From a virus: a DNA stretch of 64,000 nt. This document shows, in pieces, positions 36,418-61,405 of this stretch. Where the stretch lies: the IMG/VR virus record IMGVR_UViG_3300010244_000098, one strand, 5' to 3'. Position numbers and translations under genes: made by a program. The notes under the pieces are model-generated. The model searched no databases. It worked only from the letters and a program-made list of their open reading frames with translations, and had not been told where the DNA came from. Each line of letters starts with the position of its first letter. Position 1 is the stretch's first letter.

Positions 36418-36475
36418 TGCAGACACACCGGTGTCTGCTCATAAAAGGGTTTGTGAGAGAAAGGAGAAGACGGAT

Positions 36476-36997: not shown

Positions 36998-37024
36998 AAA
37001 ATAAATGAAAGGAAGATACCTCCT

Positions 37025-40312: not shown

Positions 40313-40322
40313 ATGAAAGACC

Positions 40323-40347
40323 AAAAGAGCCCCGCAAGGGCTCTTTT
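40323..40347 (+). terminator. intrinsic terminator
   Basis: AAAAGAGCCC-CGCAA-GGGCTCTTTT. Confidence 0.85.
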
Positions 40348-40383
40348 ATTTTTATACTCTAAGAAAAGAAAGGAACGCCCCCT

Positions 40384-41193
40384 ATGACCTCACAAAAACA
40401 AAAACCCATGGATTTTCTCTCCATTGTTGTCAAAACCATGTTGTCTGCGGGTACATACCGTATCCAACGAGAGCCGTTTACTCTCTATCCTGAGACCAAC
40501 GGCACGGATAAGACAGATCCGGGATTGGCTACAAGAGAAGGATTGCTTAAAAGTGTCTACCGCCTGTTCGAAATGGACTGGGTGGAGTCCTTTGACAGCA
40601 ACCCTTACCGTTTTTTAACACAGAACCAAATCGACTATGGCATAAATAGTGAGTTTGCCTTGTCTTTTGATCCCTTCCGCAGTGTGGCCTATATCGATTA
40701 CAGCATTCAGCCGGAAGACCCTGCTCATCCGGTCATCACCTTCCCTATCACCCAGACGATTCCTATGAGTGCCGGAGATATAGCTACCATCGGCAACCCT
40801 ATGGAACGAGCGCTGAAAGACCTGATCAGCCGAGCCGACGATCAACATTTTGACGAAGTCAACGAGCAGACCATTGCGTTATTGAGCGAGACACATCCTT
40901 CGACGAAGCAGGTCTGGTTCACTTTCAAAGAGCAACTGATTATGCAACTCTCTCAAGTCGACTTCTCTACCCTGTTTGGAAACAGTGAATGGAAAGAAAG
41001 CATTTATCAAAATCACGTCGTTATCACGATGACCGATGAGAACCATCAGGGTTATCCGTCGATTTCTATATTTGACGGCGACCCCGTAATTCAAAATCGA
41101 AACGAACTCAACCGGGCGGACATGGTCGTGCCCTCCCCGATGTTTTCATTTAGCCGAGTGGAGTACGAACCCTTTACTGACCCCCTTTCCTAG
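40384..41193 (+). CDS. hypothetical protein
   Basis: RBS AAAGGAA, 269 aa, no recognised motif. Confidence 0.7.
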   Translation: MTSQKQKPMDFLSIVVKTMLSAGTYRIQREPFTLYPETNGTDKTDPGLATREGLLKSVYRLFEMDWVESFDSNPYRFLTQNQIDYGINSEFALSFDPFRSVAYIDYSIQPEDPAHPVITFPITQTIPMSAGDIATIGNPMERALKDLISRADDQHFDEVNEQTIALLSETHPSTKQVWFTFKEQLIMQLSQVDFSTLFGNSEWKESIYQNHVVITMTDENHQGYPSISIFDGDPVIQNRNELNRADMVVPSPMFSFSRVEYEPFTDPLS

Positions 41194-41264
41194 GGGGTAC
41201 AGAATAAAAGCCCCTTTGTGCTACAATTACACAGAAACGACGGAACAGAAAGGAATGACTCTTA

Positions 41265-43655
41265 TTGAGTAAACAAAAACCATCGTGGCGACATCGCCAT
41301 CCGATGTTGCATGCGGTTTTTAAATGGTTTGGACGGTTTGCCTTTGTCGGCATCGTCATTGCTTTACTGGTTGGTGTTGGCGGAGCCCTGTATGTCCGGG
41401 ATACATTGCAGGACGTTCCAGAAATCACGGAAGAATCCCTGCGGAGCGACCCCAGCAGTAATATGTACGCTGCAAACGGGAACCGTATATGGAGCTCAGC
41501 CAAAAACCGACGGGTTTACGTCGACCATGAAGACCTCCCGCAACAATATATCGACATGTTGCTTGCAACCGAACAAGACACGTTTTATGAAGATCCGGGG
41601 TTCAGCCCTAAAGGACTGATCAACGCTTTCTTATCGGTTGTTAAAAACGCCTTCGGTCAAGGAGAAATTCGCGGAGGGTCAAGTATCGAACAACAATTAA
41701 TCAAACTAACTGCCTTCTCAACAAGCGCCGAAGACCGTACCGTAGACCGAAAAATCAAGGAGTTTTACCTGGCCAATCAACTGTATGAAAACTATTCGAA
41801 AGACCAGATACTAGAGTTTTACGTCAATAAACTGGCTTTATCAGAAAACTCTTTCGGTGCTCAAACCTTAGCCCGTACCTATTACGATAAGCCTCTTGAT
41901 GAGCTGTCAACAGCGAAATTGGCCCTAATAGCCGGTGCCGGACAGGCGCCCAGCGCCTACAATGTGTATGAGCATCCGGAAAATGCCAAGAACCGCCGGG
42001 ACACGGTTCTGTATCTTTCAAAAGAACAGGGAGCTATTTCCGGTGAAGACTACCAAAACGCCGTTGACGAACCTATCGACGACGGATTGATGCCTCAAGG
42101 CTGGCAACAAGAGAAAAACGAAAATGTGGTAATCCAATACGACGGGTACATTCAAGAAACTTTGAATCAAATTGAAGCTATGGGGTATAACCTAAGCGAA
42201 ACCCCTCTTCAGATTCATACGGCGTTGCAACCTGACTTACATAACCATATTCGTGACTTATTCAACAACCATCCGGAGTATTTCCAAGACGAAACACACC
42301 AGGCTGCCGCGACGGTTATCGAAAACCAGACAGGTCGTGTCCTCGCTCAAGTTGGTGGCCGGAATAAAACCCAGATCGGAGGAATCAACAGAGCCACGGG
42401 GACGACACGAAGTACAGGAAGTTCGACCAAGCCGTTTATCTATGCCTCCGGTATGGAAAAATACGGCTGGGGCACCAGTCAACCTTTTAGCGGAGCCAAT
42501 TACCGCTATGCCGGAACAGACGTGTGGGCTTACAACTACGGAATGCAACAGGTCGGACAGACAAACCTGCAGGAAGCTTTGCGTAAGTCCTACAATACGC
42601 CTGTTTTAAGAGCGTTTGACCAAGTTGGCGCCACCGATGTGGCCCAGACTCTGAGTGACCTGGGGCTCCCTTACTATGACAACTTAACAAGCAGTCATGC
42701 TCTGGGGTTGAATGCCAGTACCGAACACGTCAGCAGCGCCTTTTCCACTGTGGCCAACGGCGGAACATACCGCCAACCGCAGTACGCAACAAAAATTGTG
42801 TTCCCTGACAAATCGGAACGAACCATTGAACAAACCGGAGAACAAGCTATTCAGTCCAGTACAGCATGGCAGGTGATCCATACCCTTCAGGGCGTTGACT
42901 ACGCTCAAGAGGACGGAAGGGACAATGCTTATGTCGAAGGTCTGCCCCAAGCCCTGAAGACAGGAACTGTGGCTTACCCCGACGGAGCCGGAAACCCGAG
43001 CAACACGGCTATGGATCTATGGACCACCGGCGCTACACCGGACGTCTCTCTGGCCATCTGGCACGGCTATGACGCCCCGATGGACAACGGCTGGCTGTAT
43101 GAGGAGTACATGTCTCAAAGAAAGCACGACCTTTACCGGGACATTATAAAGAAAGCCGTCGAACCCTATGAGGGCTCCGGGTGGTCGGCGCCGGACTCCG
43201 TCACCCAAAATTCAGGTGACGGTCTGTCCGCCCACTATACGCCCGATGCCGTTATCACGTCGCATTTCGATGCCCATCCGACTCATGAAACCCTTGATGA
43301 GCAGACCAAGCCTTATTTTGGAAGCAAAGAGGAAGAGACCCAAGTCGAACGAGGCGACGAAGAATACGAACAGGTTCCTGAAGATTATGAACTCGGTCAA
43401 TGGAAAGACGATGTTGATGCCTTCGGTCAAGATGTAGATGAACAGATCCAGAATCTGCAAGAACAAAAAGACCAATTGGACCAAGAGTGGCAGGAGGAAA
43501 AAGAACAGCTGACCTCTGATAATGAATCCGCTCAAGATGATCTAGACGAAGCTCAAAAGGCATACGAGGAGGAGGTGCAGGCTCTTGAAGAAGACATCCA
43601 AGAAGCGCAGGAAGAGGCAGACGAACAAGTTGAAGAAGCAACACAAAGCGAATAA
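41265..43655 (+). CDS. class A penicillin-binding protein (transglycosylase-transpeptidase, PBP1A-like)
   Basis: TM anchor; GT51 motifs ATEQDTFY, GGSSIEQQLIK, RKIKE, ILEFYVN; transpeptidase SxxK (SSTK), SYN, KTGT; acidic coiled-coil tail. Confidence 0.92.
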   Translation: MSKQKPSWRHRHPMLHAVFKWFGRFAFVGIVIALLVGVGGALYVRDTLQDVPEITEESLRSDPSSNMYAANGNRIWSSAKNRRVYVDHEDLPQQYIDMLLATEQDTFYEDPGFSPKGLINAFLSVVKNAFGQGEIRGGSSIEQQLIKLTAFSTSAEDRTVDRKIKEFYLANQLYENYSKDQILEFYVNKLALSENSFGAQTLARTYYDKPLDELSTAKLALIAGAGQAPSAYNVYEHPENAKNRRDTVLYLSKEQGAISGEDYQNAVDEPIDDGLMPQGWQQEKNENVVIQYDGYIQETLNQIEAMGYNLSETPLQIHTALQPDLHNHIRDLFNNHPEYFQDETHQAAATVIENQTGRVLAQVGGRNKTQIGGINRATGTTRSTGSSTKPFIYASGMEKYGWGTSQPFSGANYRYAGTDVWAYNYGMQQVGQTNLQEALRKSYNTPVLRAFDQVGATDVAQTLSDLGLPYYDNLTSSHALGLNASTEHVSSAFSTVANGGTYRQPQYATKIVFPDKSERTIEQTGEQAIQSSTAWQVIHTLQGVDYAQEDGRDNAYVEGLPQALKTGTVAYPDGAGNPSNTAMDLWTTGATPDVSLAIWHGYDAPMDNGWLYEEYMSQRKHDLYRDIIKKAVEPYEGSGWSAPDSVTQNSGDGLSAHYTPDAVITSHFDAHPTHETLDEQTKPYFGSKEEETQVERGDEEYEQVPEDYELGQWKDDVDAFGQDVDEQIQNLQEQKDQLDQEWQEEKEQLTSDNESAQDDLDEAQKAYEEEVQALEEDIQEAQEEADEQVEEATQSE

Positions 43656-45186
43656 TCGAAAGAAACAGGAAGATACGTTTCGTCATAAACACCCGTTTCT
43701 CTCCTCGTTTTGGCTGAAGAATATAAAACCTCTGCTTCTTGTCACGGCTGTTGTGTCAGCCGGCTTCATTGGTGTTATCACCTGGCATTTATGGGGGCAG
43801 TATCAAGACAGTGTGTATTGGGCAGAGCACCATGATGAGAATATCGTCATGGCTGACCAGCCCCCTTCCCTGCTTTATGATACAGACGCAACGTCCCGAA
43901 ATGCCAAGATGAGTTTTACAAGCCTTGTCCAATCCGTGTATGACCAGGAGACCCGGGACTTCACAGAAGAAATGAACCAGGAGTCTATGGACCAGTTACA
44001 GGCTCAGTTAGACCAGATGACCAATGATGACTACAAGCAGACCTACATCGATCAGTTTGAACGACTGGAGAACAAATGGACGATTGAGCAGGCGTATCGA
44101 GCGCTTTATACCAACGAGGAGTTCACAACGATACGCGCTGATGTAACCCCTCATCAAATTGTTGCTCTAAACAACGATACGTTCGAAGCCATTGACGAAT
44201 ACTCTCTGGACAGCAACCACACGGACCAGTTTGCCATCCGTATTCATGAGTGGCAGACCAAACTCTTAGAAGACGTATTGACGATACAAAACCAAACGTT
44301 GACCTTAAGCCAGTGGTTGAATCAGAGTGACGAAAGCTACACCGTTCAAGCAGACTTGTATCCGGGTCAATTGGACCCTTTTGTGACGAGTCTAGAGGAC
44401 ATGACCCTGCATTATGAATGGAACAATACAGGAAAACTCCAGACCGTTGTTCAGCGCATGCAGACGATCACCCAGAAATATCAAGAACGCCACGACGCAT
44501 ACAATACCTACGTGGCCGATGTTGAAGACGGGGAGGAAGCCAGAGCTGAACACCAGCAGCGTCTGGACACGGCAAAGGCCAACCTAGAGAACCATCAGGA
44601 ACAAATCAACCAGGCGCGTCAAGAACTCCAGGAAAACGAACAGGCCACCCGTCAGTTGATCGACGACTTAAGCGACCAATTAGATGAGGCCAAAAGCCGT
44701 GCTGAAGATGAACAGCAGACCATTCAAGAGGACGCCGAACAGGCCATTGAAGACTTCGAGCAGGAGCAACAGGAAGAGCGGGAACGAGACCAACAAGAAC
44801 AGGAGGAGGAAGAAACCCGCGAGGACGAATCTGAGAACGACGAAGACAACGAATCGTCCGAGGACTCCTCTGAAGACGATGATTCCGGGTCCGATGATGA
44901 CAATGGAAACGAGGAAGAATCGTCTCCGCCGGGTAACAACGAATCAGACTCCAGCAGCACGGAGGAACCCTCCTCCAGTGCCCCGCCGGACTCTGACGAA
45001 GCGTCAGGTTTGACCGAAGACGCATTGGACAACCTTGTCGGCGAACCGCTTCCCGAAGACTTGTCTATTCCGCACGAAATCGAATACGAAGACGATGCGG
45101 ATGAAGAAACCGATAATCTCGTTGTTCAGGAATACACCATTAATAATGAAGAAGAAGTGGTCCAGTTTATACTGGGAACAGAATGA
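43585..45186 (+). CDS. membrane-anchored protein with MapZ-like extracellular helical domain, coiled coil and acidic linker
   Basis: Basic N-terminus, one TM helix, repeated VY/LY-x-(D/N)...F pattern (VQSVYDQETRDF; YRALYTNEEFTTIRADVT). The MapZ similarity is tentative. Confidence 0.5.
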   Translation: MKKTSKKRRKRQTNKLKKQHKANNRKKQEDTFRHKHPFLSSFWLKNIKPLLLVTAVVSAGFIGVITWHLWGQYQDSVYWAEHHDENIVMADQPPSLLYDTDATSRNAKMSFTSLVQSVYDQETRDFTEEMNQESMDQLQAQLDQMTNDDYKQTYIDQFERLENKWTIEQAYRALYTNEEFTTIRADVTPHQIVALNNDTFEAIDEYSLDSNHTDQFAIRIHEWQTKLLEDVLTIQNQTLTLSQWLNQSDESYTVQADLYPGQLDPFVTSLEDMTLHYEWNNTGKLQTVVQRMQTITQKYQERHDAYNTYVADVEDGEEARAEHQQRLDTAKANLENHQEQINQARQELQENEQATRQLIDDLSDQLDEAKSRAEDEQQTIQEDAEQAIEDFEQEQQEERERDQQEQEEEETREDESENDEDNESSEDSSEDDDSGSDDDNGNEEESSPPGNNESDSSSTEEPSSSAPPDSDEASGLTEDALDNLVGEPLPEDLSIPHEIEYEDDADEETDNLVVQEYTINNEEEVVQFILGTE

Positions 45187-45256
45187 TAAACGTCCCCGAA
45201 CGCTCTGCGTCCGGGGATAAAAAAGAAAAAAATGATGACAATGAAGAAAGGAGATT

Positions 45257-46255
45257 ATGATGAAACCGACGATTCCTGAACGAATCCCTAAAGAACTCGT
45301 CGAAGCGCCCATATGGACCTTATCGGGTGCTTCGAAGATCCCATTGGATCCTTATGCGTTGATCTATCGGGACCAGAAAAGAGGGTTTTCCCCGAAAAAG
45401 CACCAATTAATGCCTTTGGAGAAGATATGGGCATATCTCCAAGAAACCGACGACGAGGACTTAAAGGCCGCCATGCGAGTCACGTCCGACCTTCCCTATG
45501 TCGTTGTTGATATCGAGCCCGAAGGAATGATTAGCGGGAGCCCTTATTTCAAATGGCCGTATGTGTATCTGGAATACTCCAGGAACTACGGTATGCACGG
45601 CATTCTCCCCTTCTCGCCCCCTGAGGAGTATGCTTATCTGAAAGAGAAATTTATGATTAAAGACCCGGCTTGGGAAAGTGAAGTTCTTGTCGGCAAAGGC
45701 CACTTTGCAACCTTTACGTTCAATGAGCAGCCGTTGAATCAAACGGACGAACGTCGCCTTTTTTCAGCAAGTCCCCTGTTCCAGGAAGGCTTCGCTGAAC
45801 ACTTAGCGAGCAAGACGAAGAAGACACGGACTATGGACTCCGACGCCGCTATCCAAATGGAACCCGGTCAGTTCAAGGACCTGACGGATACGGCAATCGG
45901 TTCATACGACCAGTCCATCGCTGACTCTATTTTAGAAAGCGCAGAAACTCTTGAAATTGATTCGACCGATGATCCGTCCCATGCCGAAAATAGAAAGATT
46001 CTGCAGATTTACAACTTTATGATTTATAGAGACAAGGCCTATCTATCCGAATCGAACTTAGAAAGCCGAACCATTCCGCTGTTATGGTCGTTAACCAAAG
46101 ACCTTATTCCTGCCCGGGAGAAACACAGCACGTTACGGGACTCCGCCGATTATGGAGAAGTGCCTTGGCTGGGTTATGTCATGTTGGGAGGGATTGAATA
46201 TATTCGAAACAGTGCTCTCAATGATGAAGAAAAAGCCCGTTGGGTGAAGCAATAA
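45257..46255 (+). CDS. stand-alone prim-pol (AEP, NrS-1-like N-terminal domain)
   Basis: RIPKELVEAPIW...KIP...VVVDIE...YLEYSRNYGMHGI...EV...HFATFT. Confidence 0.65.
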   Translation: MMKPTIPERIPKELVEAPIWTLSGASKIPLDPYALIYRDQKRGFSPKKHQLMPLEKIWAYLQETDDEDLKAAMRVTSDLPYVVVDIEPEGMISGSPYFKWPYVYLEYSRNYGMHGILPFSPPEEYAYLKEKFMIKDPAWESEVLVGKGHFATFTFNEQPLNQTDERRLFSASPLFQEGFAEHLASKTKKTRTMDSDAAIQMEPGQFKDLTDTAIGSYDQSIADSILESAETLEIDSTDDPSHAENRKILQIYNFMIYRDKAYLSESNLESRTIPLLWSLTKDLIPAREKHSTLRDSADYGEVPWLGYVMLGGIEYIRNSALNDEEKARWVKQ

Positions 46256-46398
46256 CGGGAGTTTGGAGCACCTAGGAATTCATATTCGGCTGTGATATAC
46301 TTAATGTGTACAAAACACTATTGTGTCACAGACACAATAGTGTAAATAAAGCAAAGATGACAAAATAAATAATGACTTAAAAGGAGTTATGATACATC

Positions 46399-47961
46399 AT
46401 GGCGAATACAACTGCATTAACGAATACAAAGGTTAAAGACTTTGATATTGCTGATTCAAATGGTCAGTACAAACTGATTGTAGAAGAAGAAAACCCGTTT
46501 GCTCTTTTTGACAGCGGAGGCTTAACATACGAAATTATGTTGTTCTCTCGTTCGTATCAAGACGGAAAAATCGAAGAAGAATCAATCGAACAGACCCAAA
46601 ACACATTAAGAGAACAACTGGGCGATGAGAACATTGTTTTCACAGACCCCAAAAACGCAACGGACGACGCAAATCATTTCGAAAACTGGGTGAAAAATCA
46701 CGTCGGCGCTCCTGTTAAATTGGTTACTAAAGGCGACGGCAACTATTATCACTTAGGCGAAGGCCGTTCCGGCGGAAGCTTCCTGGGTGACTCTCGATTC
46801 TTGAAGAACTATGAGAAAGTCACAGGGACTTATGACCCGACAGAGCACCGTGTCCGTTTCTTTGATTCATTGACAGAGAAACAAAAAGAAGCAGTTGAGA
46901 CAAAAGACGAAACGCGCTTCTCGTCTATTTATAAGTCCAACAGCGGAAGCTTCAAGAGTTTAAACATGGAAGGCGTTGTAACGGACGTTATCTTGACGCA
47001 TTTAGATAATCAAGACAACTCTCCTCAACGATTCACTCGTGACGAAATTCGTACAGAAATCATCGATACGTTAGCGTCTGGAACGAAAGTTGTTGAGAAC
47101 AACAAATACTTAGCGGACCAAATCGAAAGCCTTCCTGAAGACTTTGCTTATATGGAATTGTTAACTATTGTCGGTGGTTCGGGTGCCGAAAACGTTCAAG
47201 GAACAAAACAACACGCTATTAGCGGCTTCTTGAGCAGTATTGCTCGAATCTCTATACGTTTCCATATTCAAAATCCTGAAACAGGCTATGTGTTCCAGTC
47301 CACAGCAATCAACGCCGGTGGAAACAAAGGAGCTATCGAAAGCAACAGCCTGCAATTCGAAATCGTTACGGGAGACGAAACGATGCGTGACTTTGCGTCA
47401 TTCATGACGAAATTGGCAAAACTTCCGACAACAGACATGAGTGCGCAGGATATTCTACAGGTCTTAGTTGAAAACGGCTTTTACAACAAAGAAGAAGGCC
47501 GTATGTTGACTGACGATGCGCAAAGTATGCTGGACGCAACAAGAGCTGTGATGAACGGCCGTGTTATTGATATCTCGTCTTCTCTTGTTACACCGAGAGA
47601 CGGCGAAAAAGATATTGATAAACTGGGCTCGAAAATCCGCGGTTTACATGCGAACCAAAGCAACGACAATATTAAGACGGCATTGGTTCAGCCAAGCGAA
47701 GCACCGGCTCCTTCTCAAGAAGCAGATGCTGTCAGCGACCCGTTCCAATCTCTAAAAGCTGAAACACCAGAAGAAACCCCATCACAAGAAGCAACGAATG
47801 ACGTGCAAGGCAATCCATTTGCAGAAGATGCAGAGGAAGAACCAAGCGCTAACCCGTTTGCTGACGATACTGACGACGTTGAAGAAGTCCCTTCTTCTGA
47901 TGAAGCAACAGACACATCAGACGAAGAAGAAAAAGACCTTCTCGACAACCCGTTCAAGTAA
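46399..47961 (+). CDS. hypothetical protein with SSB-like acidic tail (four D/N-P-F motifs)
   Basis: Own extended -10 promoter and terminator, strong RBS; tail SDPFQ, GNPFA, ANPFA, DLLDNPFK. Confidence 0.6.
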   Translation: MANTTALTNTKVKDFDIADSNGQYKLIVEEENPFALFDSGGLTYEIMLFSRSYQDGKIEEESIEQTQNTLREQLGDENIVFTDPKNATDDANHFENWVKNHVGAPVKLVTKGDGNYYHLGEGRSGGSFLGDSRFLKNYEKVTGTYDPTEHRVRFFDSLTEKQKEAVETKDETRFSSIYKSNSGSFKSLNMEGVVTDVILTHLDNQDNSPQRFTRDEIRTEIIDTLASGTKVVENNKYLADQIESLPEDFAYMELLTIVGGSGAENVQGTKQHAISGFLSSIARISIRFHIQNPETGYVFQSTAINAGGNKGAIESNSLQFEIVTGDETMRDFASFMTKLAKLPTTDMSAQDILQVLVENGFYNKEEGRMLTDDAQSMLDATRAVMNGRVIDISSSLVTPRDGEKDIDKLGSKIRGLHANQSNDNIKTALVQPSEAPAPSQEADAVSDPFQSLKAETPEETPSQEATNDVQGNPFAEDAEEEPSANPFADDTDDVEEVPSSDEATDTSDEEEKDLLDNPFK

Positions 47962-47971
47962 CATTCGTCCA

Positions 47972-48004
47972 TAGCCCTATCTTCTGAGATAGGGCTTCTT
48001 TTTT
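47972..48004 (+). terminator. intrinsic terminator
   Basis: AGCCCTATCT-TCTG-AGATAGGGCT-TCTTTTT. Confidence 0.85.
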
Positions 48005-48022
48005 AAGAAAGGAGCATACACT

Positions 48023-48601
48023 ATGCCAATAACTGATATTTGGAAAAAAGTAAAAACTAATGTTAAAAACCTGGGAAACCTGCTTTCGAAAAACAAGGAG
48101 AAGCAACCGATCGGTCTTCCCTCCCCTGACACTCAACGCTATGAGTTAACCGATGAAACCTTTGAGATACAAACCGGAACAAAACCGATCACATTATACC
48201 GTATACGCTCGCTGACGACGTTTACGTGGAATCACCCTTACGAGAACCCGTATCACATAAAACGTGGAGATTTGGGCGGTTTTGTGGAGAAAAGAGACAA
48301 TCTTGACGAATACTCCAACGCATGGATTGCCGAAAACGCTATGGTCTACGGCGACGCTGTCGTCACCGACAAAGCGCTCGTTCGCGGTCAAGCAAGCGTA
48401 TCCGGCTACGCGTCGATCTCTGGGAACAGTTTGGTCCAAGACCTTGTTGCCGTAAAAGACTTTGCGAAAATATCTGGAACAGCCGTTGTCTATGACGCAA
48501 TCACCATTGAAGACCAAACAGAAATCAAAAACGATGTGTACGTCCGTGGAGACAAACGTGTCCGTGTTAACAAGGACAGCCCGCAGACCGTACTCGGATA
48601 A
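48023..48601 (+). CDS. phage-type left-handed beta-helix (hexapeptide repeat) protein
   Basis: LYRIRSL...GDLGGFVEK..NL...NAWIAENAMVYGDAVVTDKALVRGQASVSG. Confidence 0.75.
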   Translation: MPITDIWKKVKTNVKNLGNLLSKNKEKQPIGLPSPDTQRYELTDETFEIQTGTKPITLYRIRSLTTFTWNHPYENPYHIKRGDLGGFVEKRDNLDEYSNAWIAENAMVYGDAVVTDKALVRGQASVSGYASISGNSLVQDLVAVKDFAKISGTAVVYDAITIEDQTEIKNDVYVRGDKRVRVNKDSPQTVLG

Positions 48602-48608
48602 GAGGGAT

Positions 48609-50078
48609 ATGATGCAACAACCAACAGTCAAACCGACGTATCGGTACGAGGAACGAAAGGAGACCGTGGCGCTGTCTGAACATCTCAAACACGTCACGGA
48701 CCAACATCCGTTTGCCCTTCTGACCACAGGCGTTGGAAGTGGCAAGACGTTCGTTGCCATACGCATGGCCTATTTATACGACCCGAACGCCTTCCTGCTA
48801 GTGATTGCTCCCAAATCAAAAATTGAGGAGCACTCCTGGGAGCCGTCGGTGGAGGCCTTTAATCGCACCATGAACAGTGATCTAACGATATACAGCACCA
48901 ATTACGACCAATTGCAGGCTAAAGACGGACCGAAGAATATATCGGACCAGCTCGAACAAGCCTGTGATGAAAACCGAACAGTTATACTGATTTATGATGA
49001 GGCTCACGTCATCAAACTGAGCCCTGACGGAACAATCAGCAAAACCGCAAAATTAGCCATTCAATTGAGTCAGACAAACGTCATTGACCATACGATCGGC
49101 GCGACAGGTACGCCCCTGGCCAACTCTTATGTTGACTACGGGACGTATTTTGTTATGGCCGGTTTTTATACAAGCAAATCCAAATATTTAAAAGAACAAG
49201 TTATCCAGTGGGATCAGTATTTCGCCCCTGTCGTCAAAAACCCCGTCACCGGGAAGATCGATCGTAACTTATTCTGGGAACCGGATAAAATTGACGCCAT
49301 GCAGAACTCAATCACCGTCTACGACGAAACGGAAGGACTCCTTCCGCCGTATAAAGAACACTGGGTGCCTTTTACCATGAGCAACGATGAATCCCTTGCT
49401 TTTGTCGATGAGGAACTGGCTGACGAATTTACCCATAATGAAGCCAAAGAACGAACCTATTTGGGGCATTACAAACACGTCAAGCAAATGGTGAGAAACG
49501 GCGGGTATTTCGAGTTTCCTGTTACTGGAATCACTCGTATGCGCAGGTATATGGCCAAAGACCCCGAACGGCTGAAACAAGCCGCACGGATTCTTTACAA
49601 CAAGCTGTATACCAAGAACCCCCATCCTGTTCTTATCTTTTACTTAAACAATGCCGAAAAAGAGGTGTTGGAGGAGCTGCTGACCACCAATCAACATTTC
49701 CAGCACGTCCACCTTCGATACGTCAACGGCGACCAGAAAGACCCGCTCATTCCCGATCATCAAGAGACGGTTTACCTGATTCAGTATAAGGCCGGGAGTG
49801 CCGCTATTGAGATTCCTGAGGCTAAAACGACTATTTTCTACATGCCTACCTATTCGTATGCTGATTTCAAACAAGCCAAAGGACGAAATCGACGAAACTT
49901 AAAGAGTGACCGAAACACCTCAGACACGATTCATTATTACTATTTGTCCGCAACGAACACCTTAGATGAACGCATTTGGGACGCTGTATCCAATAAACGA
50001 GATTTTTCTAATAAAGCCCTCAGGTCATGGATAAATAGTCAGAAAGGAGATTTTATGAATGGAATATCAATTAGCTAA
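48609..50078 (+). CDS. SF2 (DEAH/SNF2-like) helicase
   Basis: TGVGSGKT, IYDEAH, ATGTP, QAKGRNRR; RBS GAGGGA favours the start at 48609. Confidence 0.85.
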   Translation: MMQQPTVKPTYRYEERKETVALSEHLKHVTDQHPFALLTTGVGSGKTFVAIRMAYLYDPNAFLLVIAPKSKIEEHSWEPSVEAFNRTMNSDLTIYSTNYDQLQAKDGPKNISDQLEQACDENRTVILIYDEAHVIKLSPDGTISKTAKLAIQLSQTNVIDHTIGATGTPLANSYVDYGTYFVMAGFYTSKSKYLKEQVIQWDQYFAPVVKNPVTGKIDRNLFWEPDKIDAMQNSITVYDETEGLLPPYKEHWVPFTMSNDESLAFVDEELADEFTHNEAKERTYLGHYKHVKQMVRNGGYFEFPVTGITRMRRYMAKDPERLKQAARILYNKLYTKNPHPVLIFYLNNAEKEVLEELLTTNQHFQHVHLRYVNGDQKDPLIPDHQETVYLIQYKAGSAAIEIPEAKTTIFYMPTYSYADFKQAKGRNRRNLKSDRNTSDTIHYYYLSATNTLDERIWDAVSNKRDFSNKALRSWINSQKGDFMNGISIS

Positions 50079-51963
50079 AACCCTGTCCGCCCATGACCTG
50101 GCTGACAAAGTTGAAGAACTCATCACCAATGACGAAACACCAGACGAACACAAGAAAATATTGTCTTCTCATTTAAACGGAACCCAAAAGACCAACACGA
50201 TTACACGGCCGGTGACGATCGACGATCCGGCAACCGTATCGGCGTTGAAGAACGGTGCATTTTACCTTACTGTTCAAGCAGTTTTAACGACACCTCAGGC
50301 CCAAGAAGCCATAGTTCGATACATTGACCAGAATAAAAAAGCCGTTGTCGAGGCTTATTCTAACGCAGAACCTGTTGACGGGCTCCAATCACTGGCTGAC
50401 CGGACCATGCGGGATACAAACACTATGCAAAAAATTGTTACCTTCCTCACCCTTCTTATCCGTGAAGGAGAAGAAAACGACGACGAATTCGATAACCATG
50501 AACAAGAGTATTTTCACGTCTTCATTAACGAGGTATTCCCATTCTTGAGGACCGCGGTTCACATACACCGTCATCGTTTCAAAGAACAACTTCATCCTGA
50601 CGGACTGTTAGAGAAGATCATCCATCAAAATGCTGTCGATATCAGCGAGGAAGAACTCCAAGAAATCAGCGTTGAGCTGGATTTATCTGAAGACGATGAC
50701 TATTACGACCAGAAAATCAAACAAGAACTGATACGCAGAGCTCTTGCTGACGAACATTGTCATAATCACACAAGCGAGTTTATCGAATTCACCATGGATG
50801 ATGTTCACAAATTGAGCAATGCCATGGACAATCCAAACAAACGGCGACGGGTACAACGTCCCGTTAAGGAGGACACCCAGCCCTTTCATTACAGCATCAA
50901 AGACATCTACGTTCTGGGGTTGTTGTTCTTTCTTAATGAATACCTGAACGTCCTGCCCGCCTCCTCATTCTTCTTTCAAACAGAGACTGAGATAGAGGCG
51001 TTCATTGATGTTTACAAAGCTGTTGCCCCAATGTATAAAACAAACGGGCCGTCTATATCATCAAAGAATGTAAAAACAAAACAGCGCCCGCTTCCTATTG
51101 CAAACAACGACACGTTTTCCCAGGCTCTCTTTTATTCAGCTGAAGAACGCCACCGACAACTCGGCACGTTTATTTCTAACGTCTATGAGACCTTCGGGTT
51201 AAGCATAGACGCTATGTGCAACATTCCGTTGAATAAAACGGATTTAAATACACTCGCCCACCTCGTTAATAAACAGGCGAAGTTGAATGATTGGAACGAA
51301 GAACTTAAGGAACAGGCCTATCTGCTTGGGTTGTTTCTATCTGCGAATACCACACTGATGAAAAGCCATCGGGACGATAGAAGCGAAGTTGAAACGATTA
51401 TCCGTATGGATCAGGCCGAAAAAGACAAGCATCGTCATGCCCTGGAACAAAAAGATAAAGATATTGAGCGTCTGCAAAAACTGGTGAAAGAGAAAAACGA
51501 CGGGTTGAAAACATTAGACGCCTTAAAGCAGAAGAGTGCCCTGCTGGAAGAAAAACTGAAGTGGCAGGAGGAAAAAGAAGACGTTCATCAGGAAGTCAAT
51601 AACGTCGATTCTGATACAGACGAATCCGTGGCCACTGAAGCCGTTATTGAACGGTTGAACCGCCCTTCTGTCTGTTTCATCGGCGGAGACCGCAACTGGC
51701 AGCAACGCTTGAAGGAAGACCTCCCTGACGCTGTGTTTCAATTAGCTGAGGAAAGCAACCGTTCTATGAGCCACGTTGAACGTGCGGATATCATTATCTA
51801 CAATACCGCAACGATGAATCACGGCTTATTCTACCGGTTTAAGAACCATTTGAAACGCAATTCTAAAGACCCGGCTGTGATCTATCTGAACAACCAGGCC
51901 AGCAACGCTGAACGAACGTATCAATCTATTGCCCGCCAATTGATAAACCAACAACGCACTTAA
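50059..51963 (+). CDS. coiled-coil protein with C-terminal DUF2325-like domain
   Basis: VCFIGGDRNWQQRLK...ADIIIYNTATMNHGLF. Confidence 0.65.
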   Translation: MEYQLAKTLSAHDLADKVEELITNDETPDEHKKILSSHLNGTQKTNTITRPVTIDDPATVSALKNGAFYLTVQAVLTTPQAQEAIVRYIDQNKKAVVEAYSNAEPVDGLQSLADRTMRDTNTMQKIVTFLTLLIREGEENDDEFDNHEQEYFHVFINEVFPFLRTAVHIHRHRFKEQLHPDGLLEKIIHQNAVDISEEELQEISVELDLSEDDDYYDQKIKQELIRRALADEHCHNHTSEFIEFTMDDVHKLSNAMDNPNKRRRVQRPVKEDTQPFHYSIKDIYVLGLLFFLNEYLNVLPASSFFFQTETEIEAFIDVYKAVAPMYKTNGPSISSKNVKTKQRPLPIANNDTFSQALFYSAEERHRQLGTFISNVYETFGLSIDAMCNIPLNKTDLNTLAHLVNKQAKLNDWNEELKEQAYLLGLFLSANTTLMKSHRDDRSEVETIIRMDQAEKDKHRHALEQKDKDIERLQKLVKEKNDGLKTLDALKQKSALLEEKLKWQEEKEDVHQEVNNVDSDTDESVATEAVIERLNRPSVCFIGGDRNWQQRLKEDLPDAVFQLAEESNRSMSHVERADIIIYNTATMNHGLFYRFKNHLKRNSKDPAVIYLNNQASNAERTYQSIARQLINQQRT

Positions 51964-51979
51964 GAAAGGACATCGAATT

Positions 51980-52477
51980 ATGTTATTCCCTACTTTTAAA
52001 TTTAAAATCAAAGACTTGAGCGACCAATTCCACGTGGTCCAAGTGGACGACAAGACCGAAGTTCACTGGATATACGGCGGATTTGATATCTATGAGGCCG
52101 CACAAAAGCATCCGTACCGCGTTCATAAATCGACAGGAATCAAACACCTTTCCGACCGAATGAAACAATGGATCAGCAGTGAAGATAACGAGCCGATGTT
52201 TCACGTCATTGCTGAAATAAGTGAAGTGGACGAACATGCCGTCGCTATGGATATATCTCCGTACCACCTGCCGGAACACATGAGAAAACGCGTCGCTCCA
52301 TTGATCGCTGCTTACGTGGCTACCCCTTTGACAGACCGGACGCAACGAATCCAAGCAACGATTGAACCGCAGGTGGAATCCGGATTTGAGAAACGCCAGC
52401 GGGAGAAAAACGAGAATAAGAAATACTTTGATGATTTATTGAATCGACAAAAAGCCACGTCACAGAAAGTGAGGTAA
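51980..52477 (+). CDS. hypothetical protein
   Basis: RBS GAAAGGA, in operon. Confidence 0.65.
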   Translation: MLFPTFKFKIKDLSDQFHVVQVDDKTEVHWIYGGFDIYEAAQKHPYRVHKSTGIKHLSDRMKQWISSEDNEPMFHVIAEISEVDEHAVAMDISPYHLPEHMRKRVAPLIAAYVATPLTDRTQRIQATIEPQVESGFEKRQREKNENKKYFDDLLNRQKATSQKVR

Positions 52478-52480
52478 ACG

Positions 52481-53338
52481 ATGCTCTATTATACAAAATA
52501 CGCCACACCGATACGGGCAGATATCACTCTGCCTATTACCTTAATCGGAACAGGCTCAGAAGGAAATAGCATTGTTATTGACCCTTTTCGTTTAATGATC
52601 GATGTTGGATTTGCCTACGGGAAAATAACGGAGCACGTCAACATGGACCAGGTCGACTTTGTGGCTTTAACTCATGAACACATGGATCATTTAAAAATCT
52701 CCACGTTAAAACGATTCGTCAAACGCCACCCTCACCTTGTTCTGCTTATGCCGGAACGGGTGTGGGATTTCATACAGAACAAAGACCCAAACGGCAGTGC
52801 TCAAATCGAACACCGGGTTCAACCCTTTCCATTTGATAAACCGTTCTTATTGGAGACAAGAGACAAATCGTCCTATATTATTACACCTCACTCAACCAAT
52901 CACGGCGACATTACCAATGTCGCCTATGAAATAACGGACGAAGAAACGGGCACGCATATGCTCTATGCGACAGATTTGGACACGTTTGACGAAGGACCGG
53001 ACGGGTTTCCGTCGGGACTTCCTCAGTCCACCAATGACCCGTTTAATCTCATATTCCTCGAAGCGAACTATGATGAGGAGGTTTTGAGTCAGTACATTCG
53101 AGAAAAGACAGCCCTTATCCGCGAAAAAGAAATGGAACAGTTTACCGGCGGTTCGTCAGAGAAAGAATTGAAGACCCACCGCAATCACTTGTTCCGGGCT
53201 AAAAGCAACTGGCGCCACGTCAGCGAACAAGAAGCGATTCACTATATCGGCAAACACTTAACGCCCGGCGGGTTGTTCATTCCCATGCACGCCAGCCGGA
53301 CATTCGGCACGTATTTTCAGGATATGGCCGAGGAGTAA
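52481..53338 (+). CDS. metallo-beta-lactamase-fold hydrolase (phage YycJ-like nuclease)
   Basis: IGTGSEGNS, IDVG, THEHMDH, LYATD, LEANYD, HVS, PMHAS. Confidence 0.85.
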   Translation: MLYYTKYATPIRADITLPITLIGTGSEGNSIVIDPFRLMIDVGFAYGKITEHVNMDQVDFVALTHEHMDHLKISTLKRFVKRHPHLVLLMPERVWDFIQNKDPNGSAQIEHRVQPFPFDKPFLLETRDKSSYIITPHSTNHGDITNVAYEITDEETGTHMLYATDLDTFDEGPDGFPSGLPQSTNDPFNLIFLEANYDEEVLSQYIREKTALIREKEMEQFTGGSSEKELKTHRNHLFRAKSNWRHVSEQEAIHYIGKHLTPGGLFIPMHASRTFGTYFQDMAEE

Positions 53339-54386: not shown

Positions 54387-54974
54387 TTGAAACATGTTTA
54401 TGTGATTTCTCAAACAGAAAGAGATGTAAAAGAGTTGATTGCTCCTTTTAATAAACGACGCCCCGTCCCTCACGTCCGACCGAAGAAACAACTTATTGAA
54501 CAAAAACGACAAAAGATCCAGCAAGAACACGATAAGCTCAAAGAAGACTATGAGAGTTTAGCGGAATTCAACAGAGCGTATAATAAAGAGAAATACGACG
54601 CCTACCGCCGTTATGTCAATGAGGATATGCCTATTTACCTGTCCGGCACTCCGCGGAGTGACGATGCTCTGTGGGTCCATATTCGACAGGAGGAAAAAAT
54701 ACCCGAAATGGACCTGCTTCCTAAAGACCGGATTTTGCTCCGTTCCAATCCAAACGGAAAATGGAAGCATTTTAAAATTCAAAAGAAACCGTCTCCCAAA
54801 CACCGGGTGGAAGATGTCCTTGACACATTGGTGGACCCCGGGACAGCCGTCCTGCTCCCTAATTATCTATGGATTGAAGAAAATGACCGACGCTTCTCAT
54901 CCAAATGGCGCGAAGATGTTATTACGCCTTACAGCGAAGCATCCTTCGGTATTGTCCAATACGTTGAGGAATAA
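54387..54974 (+). CDS. hypothetical protein
   Basis: RBS AAGGAGG before TTG 54387; followed by a terminator at ~54991-55024. Confidence 0.65.
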   Translation: MKHVYVISQTERDVKELIAPFNKRRPVPHVRPKKQLIEQKRQKIQQEHDKLKEDYESLAEFNRAYNKEKYDAYRRYVNEDMPIYLSGTPRSDDALWVHIRQEEKIPEMDLLPKDRILLRSNPNGKWKHFKIQKKPSPKHRVEDVLDTLVDPGTAVLLPNYLWIEENDRRFSSKWREDVITPYSEASFGIVQYVEE

Positions 54975-55100
54975 TCAAAGAGTACGCGAGACAGGCAGGA
55001 ACTTCGGTTCCTGTCTATTTTTTTGACCTGTTTCACGGTCTTCATTTTACAAAAGACTTAATGCTATACTGAATCTATAATGTATACGAGGAGGAAACAC

Positions 55101-58100
55101 ATGGGAAATGATTTAGTTTTAGGAATGGATATCGGCGTATCCAGCGTAGGCTGGGGAATTATAAATCGGACGTCCGGAGACATTGTTGCCAGTGCCGTAC
55201 GAAAGTTCGAAGAAGTCGACCGTAACGCTAATGAGAAACGACGGGAGTTTCGAGGAAGTGAAAGACTGTCCCGCCGAAGAAAACATCGTTTAAAGAGAAC
55301 GAAAGACTTGTTTGACGCATACCGTATTCCTCATGACGCTATTCAAACCGTCGATCCTTACGAAGCCCGATTGAAAGGGTTGTCGCTCCCGCTTTCTGAA
55401 CTGGAACTGGCTACGGCGCTGTATCACCTGGCTAAACGTCGCGGAACAACGATTGACACCCCTGAAGATGACGACGCCGCAGCGGACAGTTTGTCTACCA
55501 AAGACCAATTGAAGCAAAATGCAAAAGAACTAAAAGACAAATACATTGTTGAGATTCAATACGAAAGATTAAAAGAAGACAAGTCCATTCGAAACCATAA
55601 GAATCGTTTTCGAACCGAGGATTATATACGCGAAGCAAACACCCTTCTTGATACTCAGCGACGTGCTCACGAGAAAATCGATGAGGCTTTTGTCAACAAC
55701 TACCTGGAGATTTTGACCAGTCGCCGTGAATATTACGAAGGACCGGGTTCTCAAAAGTCCCCTACTCCCTATGGGAGATACTTTTACGACGAGGACGGAG
55801 AATTGCGCTATGAAGGTATGATTGAAAAAATGCGAGGGAAAGGGACATATTTTAAAGATCAGCCTCGAATGGCAAAACGTTCCTATACGGCAGAGTTATT
55901 CAACGTTCTTAACGAATTAAATAACGTACGCTATCCTGACGAAGAAACGGGTGAGATGAAAGCTCTGACTCAAGAAGAAAAACAGCAACTGATTAATAAC
56001 TATTTAAAGAAAAACAAACGAATCACATTAAACGCTATTGCGAAGTTAGTCAACCTCTCCAATAAACTGGAGATTAAAGGCGCTCCAATCAATATGAAAA
56101 AGAACAAAGCGGAGTTTTCTGAACTCAAAAGGTTCAAAGAATTGAAAAAACAATTAAAAGATGTTGATGTGCCAGATTATTTTTTCGAAAATGTCCCTTG
56201 TTTGGATTCAATCGCCGATATTTTGACTTCAGAGAAAGGAATGACCCGCAGAGAAGAACAACTTTCTGATCTTTTTGAAACCCATTACGCTGATCCTTTA
56301 ACGAATGTTGTGGAGACGCTTAAAAACGATACCTTTTTCAAAGAATATCACTCCTTATCTAAACAAGGAATTGACTTGATTATGACTGAACTTTGGGAGA
56401 CAGAGAAAAATCAAATGCAGTTGTTTACAGAATACGGCTTAGGAGCCGATCGTATTTCCCAGCTCCAGTCTGGCACTGAGATTCAATTCGACGGAGAGGC
56501 TATTTTGAGCAGTGTTGCTCAACGCGCTCACCGGGAAGCCGTGAAGATCACCAACGAACTCCGAAAAACTTACGGGGAGTTTGATTACGTGGTTATCGAA
56601 ATGGCTCGAGAAAAGAACGAAAAAGAAAAGAAAGACAGGTATAGCGCTTTTCAAAAACAGCACGGGAAATTTGAAAGACGAATGGCAGAGTTATTGGGCG
56701 TTGAAGAACTAAAGGATCTTCGGTTGAATGGGAAACAGATGACCGCTTTAAAACTGTTGGATAAACAAGATTTTAAATGTATCTATTCCGGAAAAGGAAT
56801 CCTGCCGGACCAGATCGTCAACGACTTCCACTTGTTTGAAATTGACCACATTATTCCTATTTCCTACTCATATGACGACAGTCAGCAGAACAAAGTGTTG
56901 TGTTATGTCGATGAGAACCAAAAGAAAGGTCAAAAGACACCTTTCCACTATTTCCAAAGCGGAGAAGCCAGCCGGTCATTCGAAGAATTTGAACAAGAGT
57001 GCACCAATTTGTTCAACTCTAAGCGCATCTCTAAGAAAAAACTCAACTACCTGCTCGAAAAGAGAGATGTACAACGTGACGAAGAAGTCCAGACAAGTTT
57101 TATCAATCGTAATTTAGTCGACACACGGTATGCCATGGGGAGTTTTTCCAATAATTTAAGAGCCTTTTACCAGAACAATCAGATCCCCACTCGAGTACTG
57201 TCTGTCCGGGGAAGTTTCACGCACGCGTTAAGAAAAAGAGCGAGATTGAACAAGGATCGTGATGAAAGTCACGCTCACCACGGAATCGACGCCCTGATCG
57301 TCGCTGCTATTGGAGTTATGCCTTTATTGAACCAATTCAAAAACCTAACAATGGACCCTCAAGGCGTCGCTGTTGATAAAAATACTGGCGAAATTCTCAG
57401 CAAAGAAGACATTTTTAGTGAGTCGTCCCTTCGATTCTTACATACATTACGCAACTACGAACCGTTCATCAATTATTCTCACAAGGTTGACCGAAAACCG
57501 AACCGGTCTATGACGAATCAAACGATTTATTCTACTCGGAAAAAGAATGATGAAGAATATAGGGTGAGAAAAATAAAGAACATTTACACCCTTGATAAAC
57601 AAGCGTTCAAGACATTGAAGAAAAAAATTGATCAACATCCGGAAAACTTTCTTATGGCACAGCACGATCCTAAGACGCGGGCGTTGATTCTCAAAGTCAT
57701 GGAAGAACATGACCATGCTGACAATCCGTTCCAAGATTTCTACACTAACCACGGGTACATCTTAAAGGACGGAAAAGTGCCTGTGAAAGGATTGAAATAT
57801 CTGCACGATAAAGTGGGGGTTTACAAAGACATTACTCATCACTATCCGAATGCTAAAAACAAGGTTATCTTAAAAAGTCAAAAAAGTATCCGTATTGATG
57901 TGTATCAAAATGAGCAGGGAAAATACAAATACTTAGGCGTTCCATACAATTGGTTCAAGAAAGAAAAGAACGCTTATGTTCTAGACATGGACGCCTATAA
58001 TGCAGAGAAAAAGGCTCCTTACAAACGTATTGATGGTAAGTATACGTTCCTTTATAGTTTTTATAAAAACGAGCGCATTTCTTATGACAAAGAAGAAAAA

Positions 58101-58346
58101 CGCACAAACCCTGTGACCGGTGAAAAAGAAAAGCAACAAGTCCATTACGATAAGCTATTCAGAGGAGACAGTAGTCCGAGAGACAATAAACTTGAGGTTG
58201 AAGATATTAGCTTTCAAACCAAAAAACAACAAATAATTTCTGTTGGATCGTTAAAAAATATCAAAAAATACACGGTTGATCTCTTAGGCAACGAGTATCT
58301 TATCGAACAAGAAACCTTCACCGATCGTGTCCCTATTATCCGTTGA
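55101..58346 (+). CDS. cas9: compact Cas9 (~1081 aa, SaCas9/St1Cas9-like)
   Basis: RuvC-I LGMDIGVSSVG, Arg-rich bridge helix, YYEGPG, RuvC-II VIEMARE, HNH EIDHIIP...DDS..NKVL....N..KG, FINRNLVDTRY, RuvC-III HHGIDALIVA. Confidence 0.98.
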   Translation: MGNDLVLGMDIGVSSVGWGIINRTSGDIVASAVRKFEEVDRNANEKRREFRGSERLSRRRKHRLKRTKDLFDAYRIPHDAIQTVDPYEARLKGLSLPLSELELATALYHLAKRRGTTIDTPEDDDAAADSLSTKDQLKQNAKELKDKYIVEIQYERLKEDKSIRNHKNRFRTEDYIREANTLLDTQRRAHEKIDEAFVNNYLEILTSRREYYEGPGSQKSPTPYGRYFYDEDGELRYEGMIEKMRGKGTYFKDQPRMAKRSYTAELFNVLNELNNVRYPDEETGEMKALTQEEKQQLINNYLKKNKRITLNAIAKLVNLSNKLEIKGAPINMKKNKAEFSELKRFKELKKQLKDVDVPDYFFENVPCLDSIADILTSEKGMTRREEQLSDLFETHYADPLTNVVETLKNDTFFKEYHSLSKQGIDLIMTELWETEKNQMQLFTEYGLGADRISQLQSGTEIQFDGEAILSSVAQRAHREAVKITNELRKTYGEFDYVVIEMAREKNEKEKKDRYSAFQKQHGKFERRMAELLGVEELKDLRLNGKQMTALKLLDKQDFKCIYSGKGILPDQIVNDFHLFEIDHIIPISYSYDDSQQNKVLCYVDENQKKGQKTPFHYFQSGEASRSFEEFEQECTNLFNSKRISKKKLNYLLEKRDVQRDEEVQTSFINRNLVDTRYAMGSFSNNLRAFYQNNQIPTRVLSVRGSFTHALRKRARLNKDRDESHAHHGIDALIVAAIGVMPLLNQFKNLTMDPQGVAVDKNTGEILSKEDIFSESSLRFLHTLRNYEPFINYSHKVDRKPNRSMTNQTIYSTRKKNDEEYRVRKIKNIYTLDKQAFKTLKKKIDQHPENFLMAQHDPKTRALILKVMEEHDHADNPFQDFYTNHGYILKDGKVPVKGLKYLHDKVGVYKDITHHYPNAKNKVILKSQKSIRIDVYQNEQGKYKYLGVPYNWFKKEKNAYVLDMDAYNAEKKAPYKRIDGKYTFLYSFYKNERISYDKEEKRTNPVTGEKEKQQVHYDKLFRGDSSPRDNKLEVEDISFQTKKQQIISVGSLKNIKKYTVDLLGNEYLIEQETFTDRVPIIR

Positions 58347-58390
58347 TCCAGGGAGTTTACTTCCCTAATCGCTTTTGATATACTGAAATT

Positions 58391-58485
58391 GTTCGATAGA
58401 TCATTTCACTATACCTAAGAACAATGGAATCTATCAAAACAAGGCTTTATGCCGAAATCAAAAGCCCCCGTTCAGGGGGCTTTTT
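58391..58485 (+). ncRNA. tracrRNA
   Basis: Promoter TTTACT-17-TATACT (58356-58384); anti-repeat 58404-58440; nexus AAGGCTTTATGCCG; terminator AAAAGCCCCC-GTTCA-GGGGGCTTTTT. Confidence 0.93.
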
Positions 58486-58715
58486 CTATGCTTAAAAATC
58501 TCGTATAATAAGAGTAACGCTTAGGGTGCCTTGTGGATAAATGACTGCTGTTTTTATTTTTTCCATTACTGCCTGTGGATAACAGGCAATTGCAAAACGT
58601 CATTATTTTTCATTTTGATTGGAAGGAAACGTCGATTGTATACTGTCAGTTCAATAATCATAACTGTTTTGATAAGAAAGTTAATTCTTACAGTTAGGGA
58701 TATACAATGAAAAAA

Positions 58716-59014
58716 GTTTTGGTACTCTATCGTTCTTAGGTATAGTGAAACTGCCAGTCCTTTATATTCAAACACCTCTATGTTTTGGTACTCTATCGTT
58801 CTTAGGTATAGTGAAACGACGTCTGTTCGGCCAAAGGTGGCTGCGACTGTTTTGGTACTCTATCGTTCTTAGGTATAGTGAAACAGTAGCGAAGTAGATA
58901 ATTTGGTGGAAGGGTTTTGGTACTCTATCGTTCTTAGGTATAGTGAAACAGTAGCGAAGTAGATAATTTGGTGGAAGGGTTTTGGTACTCTATCGTTCTT
59001 AGGTATAGTGGAAA
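58716..59014 (+). CRISPR. type II CRISPR mini-array: 5 repeats, 4 spacers (3 unique)
   Basis: 36-nt repeat GTTTTGGTACTCTATCGTTCTTAGGTATAGTGAAAC at 58716, 58782, 58849, 58914 and 58979 (last degenerate); spacers of 30, 31, 29 and 29 nt, the last two identical. Confidence 0.98.
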
Positions 59015-59028
59015 TATTGCTCTAACAG

Positions 59029-59059
59029 AAACCGACATGGAGTTCCCTATGTCGGTTTT
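59029..59059 (+). terminator. terminator of the CRISPR array
   Basis: AAACCGACAT...ATGTCGGTTTT. Confidence 0.8.
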
Positions 59060-59472: not shown

Positions 59473-59871
59473 ATGAGACCAATGACTATTCAAAAACCAA
59501 ATACTTCTAAAGAAACCGTCATATTTTATTATGACGGTTTTTCTAAACCCGTTTTTATAGGAAACACGCTGCAGGACCTCGAGAGTGAGCTCTTTGGTGT
59601 TGCTAAAGAGGATCGGGTCGACGAATCCATCTATGAACCTATGAGCACTGAACTCGCAAATTCCTGGAATGACAGCTTCATTGATATCAACCTTGAAACC
59701 TACGCATACAACCTGCACGTCGCCCCCTCCTTGGAGGACATGACCCGCCGTTTGACATCCGTCAATTCTTTTATTTACGGCTTTGACAACCCTGAACGAC
59801 ACTTAGATGCTTTGATTGAGGACGTTGTTTATCAATCAACAAAGCAATCTGTTACTTCATTAACCAATTAA
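59473..59871 (+). CDS. small acidic hypothetical protein
   Basis: ORF in a co-oriented cluster. Confidence 0.65.
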   Translation: MRPMTIQKPNTSKETVIFYYDGFSKPVFIGNTLQDLESELFGVAKEDRVDESIYEPMSTELANSWNDSFIDINLETYAYNLHVAPSLEDMTRRLTSVNSFIYGFDNPERHLDALIEDVVYQSTKQSVTSLTN

Positions 59872-59939
59872 CGAATTGATAAATCAACGAAGTAACAAAC
59901 CAATAAATTAACAAATTAACAGAGTAACAAATAAACAAA
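59836..59939. repeat. 13-unit 8-bp-period array (same family as the parA-upstream array)
   Basis: TCAACAAA GCAATCTG TTACTTCA TTAACCAA TTAACGAA TTGATAAA TCAACGAA GTAACAAA CCAATAAA TTAACAAA TTAACAGA GTAACAAA TAAACAAA. Confidence 0.75.
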
Positions 59940-59949
59940 CAGAAAAGAG

Positions 59950-61294: not shown

Positions 61295-61357
61295 AATGAA
61301 AATTTCATAGAAGAAATAGAAACAAGCATACTAGACAAAATGAAAGGATATCGACGA

Positions 61358-61397
61358 GTAACAAATCAATAAATTAATTCATTAACAAATTAACAGG
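61358..61397. repeat. 5-unit 8-bp-period array abutting an RBS
   Basis: GTAACAAA TCAATAAA TTAATTCA TTAACAAA TTAACAGG. Confidence 0.65.
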
Positions 61398-61405
61398 AGG
61401 CCGTT

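Follow-up and report, generated by a model that had tools for sequence, protein, structure and literature searches.

A type II-A-derived Cas9 module without adjacent adaptation genes and with two putative DnaA boxes in its leader

Adaptation genes accompany 36% of plasmid CRISPR systems, as against 88% of those on chromosomes (PMC11656645, PMC9071438). In the type II-C system of CampyICE1 from Campylobacter jejuni and C. coli, a sole Cas9 occurs without cas1 or cas2, and 64% of the spacers are directed against plasmids (PMC8743540). The design treated here is thus already known, since CampyICE1 embodies the same idea in type II-C and most plasmid systems are without adaptation genes. Our subject is a cas9 locus at positions 55,101 to 59,059 of the IMG/VR virus record IMGVR_UViG_3300010244_000098, a stretch of 64,000 nucleotides (the window). 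A database record places the encoded protein on a 222-kb contig from a plant metagenome, of which 87.2 kb of contiguous sequence were searched. We lean towards reading the locus as a frozen, interference-only module of type II-A descent, used by a large conjugative element against rival mobile elements.

Like CampyICE1, the locus has a lone Cas9 without cas1 and cas2, a conjugative element as its probable carrier, a short array (4 spacers here, about 3 per array there), repeat changes that are mirrored in the trans-activating CRISPR RNA (tracrRNA), and a Cas9 distinct from the chromosomal one. However, CampyICE1 belongs to type II-C and to Campylobacterota, is integrated, carries three dispersed arrays and a tracrRNA gene away from cas9, and has demonstrated plasmid targets, whereas the module described here is II-A-derived, falls in Bacillota and forms one contiguous unit with a DnaA-box leader. 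Type IV-A3 and V-M systems are also plasmid-borne, frequently without adaptation genes and engaged in inter-plasmid competition, but they silence without cutting, and the IV-A3 leader is usable by host Cas1-Cas2 (PMC11656645, PMC9071438). The chromosomal counterparts are long-Csn2 type II-A loci of the SaCas9/St1 clade in Alkalibacterium, Marinilactibacillus, Carnobacterium, Jeotgalibaca and Listeria, whose Cas9 proteins are 57-68% identical to the plasmid Cas9 (52-53% in Listeria). They have in common with it a same-strand tracrRNA gene downstream of cas9, the nexus, the direction of the array and two DnaA boxes ahead of it, but they keep cas1-cas2-csn2, a repeat starting with A, a conserved leader end and a 5' hairpin in the tracrRNA, and their arrays are often long. 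The locus carries the design of a sole Cas9 on a conjugative element beyond one type II-C case in Campylobacter into type II-A of Bacillota. It also contributes a compact Cas9 with an RNA duplex that has diverged from the host type. Its main interest lies in the conserved pair of DnaA boxes, apparently undescribed, in a branch of otherwise ordinary chromosomal Cas9 systems.

In all 16 genome loci with a Cas9 identity above 53%, the gene order is cas9-tracrRNA-cas1-cas2, with cas1 directly behind the tracrRNA gene, followed by csn2 and the array. The layout in the window therefore corresponds to this order with the adaptation block deleted between the tracrRNA gene and the array. An earlier annotation made from the letters alone (the sequence-only reading) had reported no cas1, cas2 or csn2 in the window, and none was present in the 23 kb beyond it either; neither these genes nor a second array were found in the 87.2 kb, so that a cas1/cas2 pair with the same repeat elsewhere on the element, which that annotation had named as evidence against its view, did not turn up there. 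The integration-related leader end that is conserved in type II-A is also missing, an A run standing in place of either type found in relatives. With no cas1-cas2-csn2 in the 87.2 kb, the locus is classed as II-A-derived and not as a complete II-A system. In the phylogenetic tree its Cas9 falls in the II-A clade, not in II-C, and is nested among Alkalibacterium proteins within the Carnobacteriaceae. Its sister, with 68% identity, is a second Cas9 found in the same sample, whose gene sits among chromosomal-type genes and carries a host-type tracrRNA. Recombination within cas9 was rejected, as either the sister or a Carnobacteriaceae protein was nearest in every 100-aa window. These comparisons show that the locus was acquired by the element from an Alkalibacterium-like chromosome, that cas1-cas2-csn2 were lost and that the stretch ahead of the array was retained.

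Relative to the sister gene, cas9 is saturated at synonymous sites (proportion of differing synonymous sites, pS, 0.82; of nonsynonymous sites, pN, 0.195), and its frame is open. Its GC content at third codon positions is 0.43, compared with about 0.24 in the sister and 0.42-0.55 in the genes of the element. Saturated synonymous sites, an open frame and tracrRNA changes that mirror those of the repeat show that the loss of adaptation is old and that the module has been maintained under long selection.

The features of the locus are as follows.

54993-55016, + strand: terminator of the upstream operon, which insulates cas9 (computed)
55062-55094, + strand: extended -10 promoter-like TGnTATACT of cas9 (55062-55070) and AGGAGG ribosome-binding site (read from the sequence, putative in function)
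55101-58346, + strand: cas9, 1081 aa, of the SaCas9 clade in type II-A, with a full set of catalytic residues
58356-58384, + strand: tracrRNA promoter (-35, 17 nt, extended -10), at the same place in relatives
about 58391-58486, + strand: tracrRNA, with a 13-nt 5' extension, anti-repeat (58404-58440), nexus (58441-58454) and terminator hairpin
58487-58715, + strand: leader, at the position of the 3' end of csn2 in relatives
58532-58540, + strand: putative DnaA box 1, TGTGGATAA, at -184 relative to repeat 1 (relatives: -191)
58574-58582, + strand: putative DnaA box 2, TGTGGATAA, at -142 relative to repeat 1 (relatives: -146)
58703-58715, + strand: -10-like TACAAT, then an A run (the counterpart in relatives is TATAAT, with a conserved leader end of 5 nt that is missing here)
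58716-59014, + strand: CRISPR array, 36-nt repeats at 58716, 58782, 58849, 58914 and 58979
58752-58781, 58818-58848 and 58885-58913: spacers 1, 2 and 3, with a copy of spacer 3 at 58950-58978
59029-59059, + strand: inverted repeat with T run behind the array, a probable terminator (read from the sequence)

The contiguity of cas9, tracrRNA gene, leader and array had been recognized before, and the leader, then put at about 230 bp, measures 229 bp. The three-spacer array had to be recounted: it consists of five repeats enclosing four spacers, and as the fourth spacer is a copy of the third, three distinct ones are left, as originally described. Four repeats are identical and the last one (58979) carries two changes; its degeneracy indicates that the array is transcribed from the leader, on the + strand. 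Another assembly has spacer 3 in three tandem copies, which we count in favor of a frozen array. Both assemblies in which the array is resolved have these three spacers, though the two assemblies possibly represent one sample. A single-repeat form in a Logan contig is probably a collapsed assembly.

The Cas9 (1081 aa) scores 602 bits against TIGR01865 (cut-off 100), and its predicted structure is a complete fold (predicted local distance difference test score, pLDDT, 81.8), with SaCas9 as the best solved relative (E 1e-174). The RuvC (D, E, H, D) and HNH (H, N) residues that the sequence-only reading had listed are indeed in place: D10, E500, H727 and D730 of RuvC and D582, H583, N597 and N606 of HNH show no variation among 40 relatives. 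The plasmid Cas9 agrees with SaCas9 (PDB 5AXW/5CZZ, 7ENR) in its domain order and catalytic residues and differs from it by a diverged end that interacts with the protospacer-adjacent motif (PAM), by the change R54E and by a glycine at the equivalent of R654. As the PAM-interacting end has diverged, the SaCas9 PAM is not transferable to the plasmid Cas9. A metagenome scan for relatives of the protein yielded none.

The tracrRNA has its own promoter and terminator, and anti-repeat, nexus and terminator could all be identified. A search of Rfam gave no match. Pairing of repeat and anti-repeat reaches -42.3 kcal/mol, close to the -42.7 to -45.1 kcal/mol of intact loci, while cross pairs range from -14 to -26 kcal/mol, and pairing of the plasmid tracrRNA with repeats of the host type is poor, at -14 to -17 kcal/mol. 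The repeat differs from Carnobacteriaceae and Listeria repeats by 8-13 nt, the first base among them, and from Bacillales repeats by 7-10 nt. The proposed resemblance of repeat and tracrRNA to the SaCas9 type was correct at the level of the SaCas9/St1 family, but the closest relatives are found among loci of Carnobacteriaceae and Bacillales. The nexus matches the host type exactly, whereas the 5' hairpin that is stable in 13 of 13 related tracrRNAs, many with a GACG loop, has been lost. An identical repeat was found neither in 185,579 genomes nor in viruses or metagenomes. The tracrRNA self-fold (-6.9 kcal/mol) was considered as a switch or natural single-guide mimic and rejected, as 153 of 2000 shuffled sequences reached this value, i.e. 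chance level; the predicted tracrRNA start leaves no guide segment ahead of the pseudo-repeat, as a single-guide long tracrRNA would have. Each repeat also holds a sigma-70-like pair (TTGGTA, 16 nt, TATAGT; 9/12), of which the host-type repeat lacks the last -10 base; judged by its sequence, the pair could let transcription begin within every spacer.

In the relatives from Carnobacteriaceae, the end of csn2 lies about 10 bp ahead of the first repeat, so their leader is the 3' end of csn2. This part of the gene contains TGTGGATAA at -191 and -146, both copies in 15 of 16 loci and one in the remaining locus. This perfect 9-mer, which gives the consensus DnaA box when read as its reverse complement, is conserved as DNA and not as protein: the Val codon within the boxes is GTG in 32/32 cases, as against 12% elsewhere, while Csn2 proteins have a median identity of 33%. 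When 185,579 genomes were scanned for two boxes combined with the repeat start, 92 matches were obtained, 12 of which are these CRISPR loci, all with identical spacing; 32 of the 80 others lie near dnaA. The same pair is found in Listeria seeligeri, and Bacillales loci have the first box in 6/6 cases and the second, inverted, in 4/6, whereas more distant II-A loci are without boxes. The plasmid leader keeps both, and no others occur in the 87 kb; the chance of two within 229 bp is about 2e-6. Outside the boxes, identity to the relatives is 0.37, compared with 0.38 for shuffled sequences, and neither a Csn2 protein remnant nor coding similarity was detected in the leader. Since the DNA around the boxes matches csn2 no better than shuffles do, descent from csn2 is inferred from position and motifs, and the only recognizable remnants are the two perfect boxes and the -10 element. 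The second box lies within a 7-bp inverted repeat (58567-58585), and both plasmid boxes share a TGCC-containing flank that is unseen in relatives.

If the array is frozen, the boxes must have been kept for a role other than integration, most simply array transcription, and their survival in a locus without adaptation genes suggests that DnaA may act on array expression. For the Carnobacteriaceae-Listeria-Bacillales II-A branch as a whole, we tentatively propose, with rather less than even confidence, that DnaA binds the csn2 boxes, controls the array and so couples immunity to the replication state; the boxes retained in the stripped module would point to control of CRISPR RNA (crRNA) expression or, with lower likelihood, to DnaA as an integration factor acting in trans. 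To our knowledge, little is known about host factors for type II arrays. The natural deletion parts array expression from adaptation and thereby makes the DnaA question testable. Judged by titles and abstracts, with most of the subscription literature outside reach, no paper linked DnaA boxes to CRISPR leaders.

From what is known of the family, cas9, tracrRNA and pre-crRNA would each be transcribed on the + strand, repeat and anti-repeat would pair and be cut by host RNase III, and Cas9 with one of the three guides would cleave matching DNA beside a PAM. By analogy with CampyICE1 (PMC8743540) and with plasmid systems in general (PMC9071438), the targets would be rival plasmids or phages of the host. 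The array would be altered solely by duplication or loss of units, and binding of host DnaA to the two boxes would affect array transcription, for which the boxes would have survived.

Targets were sought in several ways. Neither the whole array nor single spacers found a protospacer in phages and plasmids, and exact 20-21-mers and 16-mer seeds found none in IMG/VR (best extension 23/31). Searches with 24-mers and 3 mismatches in 301 Lactobacillales genomes gave 3 matches, compared with at least 4 in controls. The sequence-only reading had seen no protospacer in the window, and this holds for the whole 87.2 kb, where no self-match exceeded shuffled controls, partial matches included; one of 15/19 at 54851-54869 is at chance level. 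The best spacer-plasmid match, of spacer 1 to a type III Mod methylase gene of Lactobacillaceae plasmids (22/24, E 0.4), was rejected because a conserved aromatic-Trp pair is unmatched and the Carnobacteriaceae homologues fit worse. Conversely, host spacers did not target the element.

Anatomy, signatures of selection and the example of CampyICE1 support the idea of an interference-only module, already put forward in the sequence-only reading, but the plasmids, phages or host genes suggested as its targets were matched in no collection. Several points weigh against it. The absence of protospacers extends to phages, plasmids, IMG/VR, Lactobacillales genomes and self, in a habitat that is poorly sampled. 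The module is known from a single element in one sample set, and the cas search covered 87.2 of 222 kb, leaving about 135 kb outside it. In the tree the Cas9 branch is fourfold longer than that of the sister (0.50 vs 0.13), and the protein carries 20 changes at columns that are invariant in 30 relatives (median about 2), among them the charge reversal R54E in the bridge helix and R680G, by alignment the position of SaCas9 R654.

The long branch and these changes, together with the lost tracrRNA hairpin and the lack of a target, would also fit a weakened relic under relaxed selection, which cuts poorly or no longer and is disappearing. We consider this unlikely: no stop codon or frameshift has arisen despite saturated synonymous sites, the ratio of amino-acid to four-fold change on the branch is about 0.27 (a rough value), the RNA duplex is compensated, and promoters and boxes were kept while the intervening DNA was randomized. 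Engineered SaCas9, moreover, tolerates loss of R654 (PMC8860571).

Updating in trans, which the sequence-only reading had left as an option, is disfavored and in our view quite unlikely. Here, Cas1-Cas2-Csn2 of the host would still extend the array, and the boxes would be kept since DnaA would help integration at the leader. IHF plays such a part in type I-E. In its favor, the leader motifs stand at nearly unchanged distances from the first repeat, four of the repeats share one sequence, the same sample holds a chromosomal-type II-A Cas9, and use in trans is known for type IV-A3 (PMC11656645). However, integration in S. thermophilus requires 10 bp on either side of the leader-repeat junction (PMC4330368), and both sides differ here from the host type: the repeat has changed, its first base included, while the sister Cas9 retains a host-type tracrRNA, and the A run has taken the place of the conserved 5-nt leader end. 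The absence of the exact repeat from the genomes scanned and the recurrence of the same three spacers also argue against updating.

We regard it as similarly improbable that Cas9 acts mainly by binding, repressing genes of host or element via partial matches or serving as a decoy against a host II-A system. The changes in Cas9 occur in RNA- and DNA-contacting regions, the host-type nexus might allow loading of host RNAs, and phage Cas9 decoys have been described (PMC11656645), but unlike in the described decoy both nuclease sites are intact, which also speaks against a nuclease-dead repressor; the spacers are of full length and without partial self-matches above shuffles, pairing with host repeats is poor, and the self-fold of the tracrRNA is weak. 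A complete but split system, with cas1-cas2-csn2 or more arrays in the remaining part of the element, would have the three arrays spread over CampyICE1 as a parallel, but it is very unlikely given the 87.2 kb without such genes and the position of the adaptation genes in relatives, between tracrRNA gene and array.

With respect to relatives of the locus, Cas9-like contigs have a depth near 1500 in one run, compared with 48 for the element; if they belong to the sister gene, its carrier far outnumbers the element. The cas9 of A. iburiense (Alkalibacterium) has one in-frame stop, beside an array of 85 repeats. Several chromosomal relatives adjoin GmrSD, PglZ or toxin-antitoxin genes, i.e. lie in defence islands. 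Two more distant Cas9 genes (in a Listeria costaricensis genome and in G206) had no adjacent cas1 match and no detectable array in the stretch examined.

The window encodes RepA_N, Rep3, ParA, gyrase-type subunits, RecD2 and a lysozyme-M23 protein, a gene content that fits a large conjugative element, and the relationships of its Cas9 point to Carnobacteriaceae. The nearest named RepA is from Aerococcus (37%), and with the polymerase as query no related element was found in 51 genomes of the family. A cluster at 33580-53338 contains primase-helicase-like, family B polymerase-like, class A penicillin-binding protein, superfamily 2 helicase and metallo-beta-lactamase-fold genes; for the polymerase-like gene, tblastn gave only distant matches, on actinobacterial plasmids. 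Two tandem arrays with an 8-bp period (59836-59945 and 61357-61403) lie ahead of small orphan genes.

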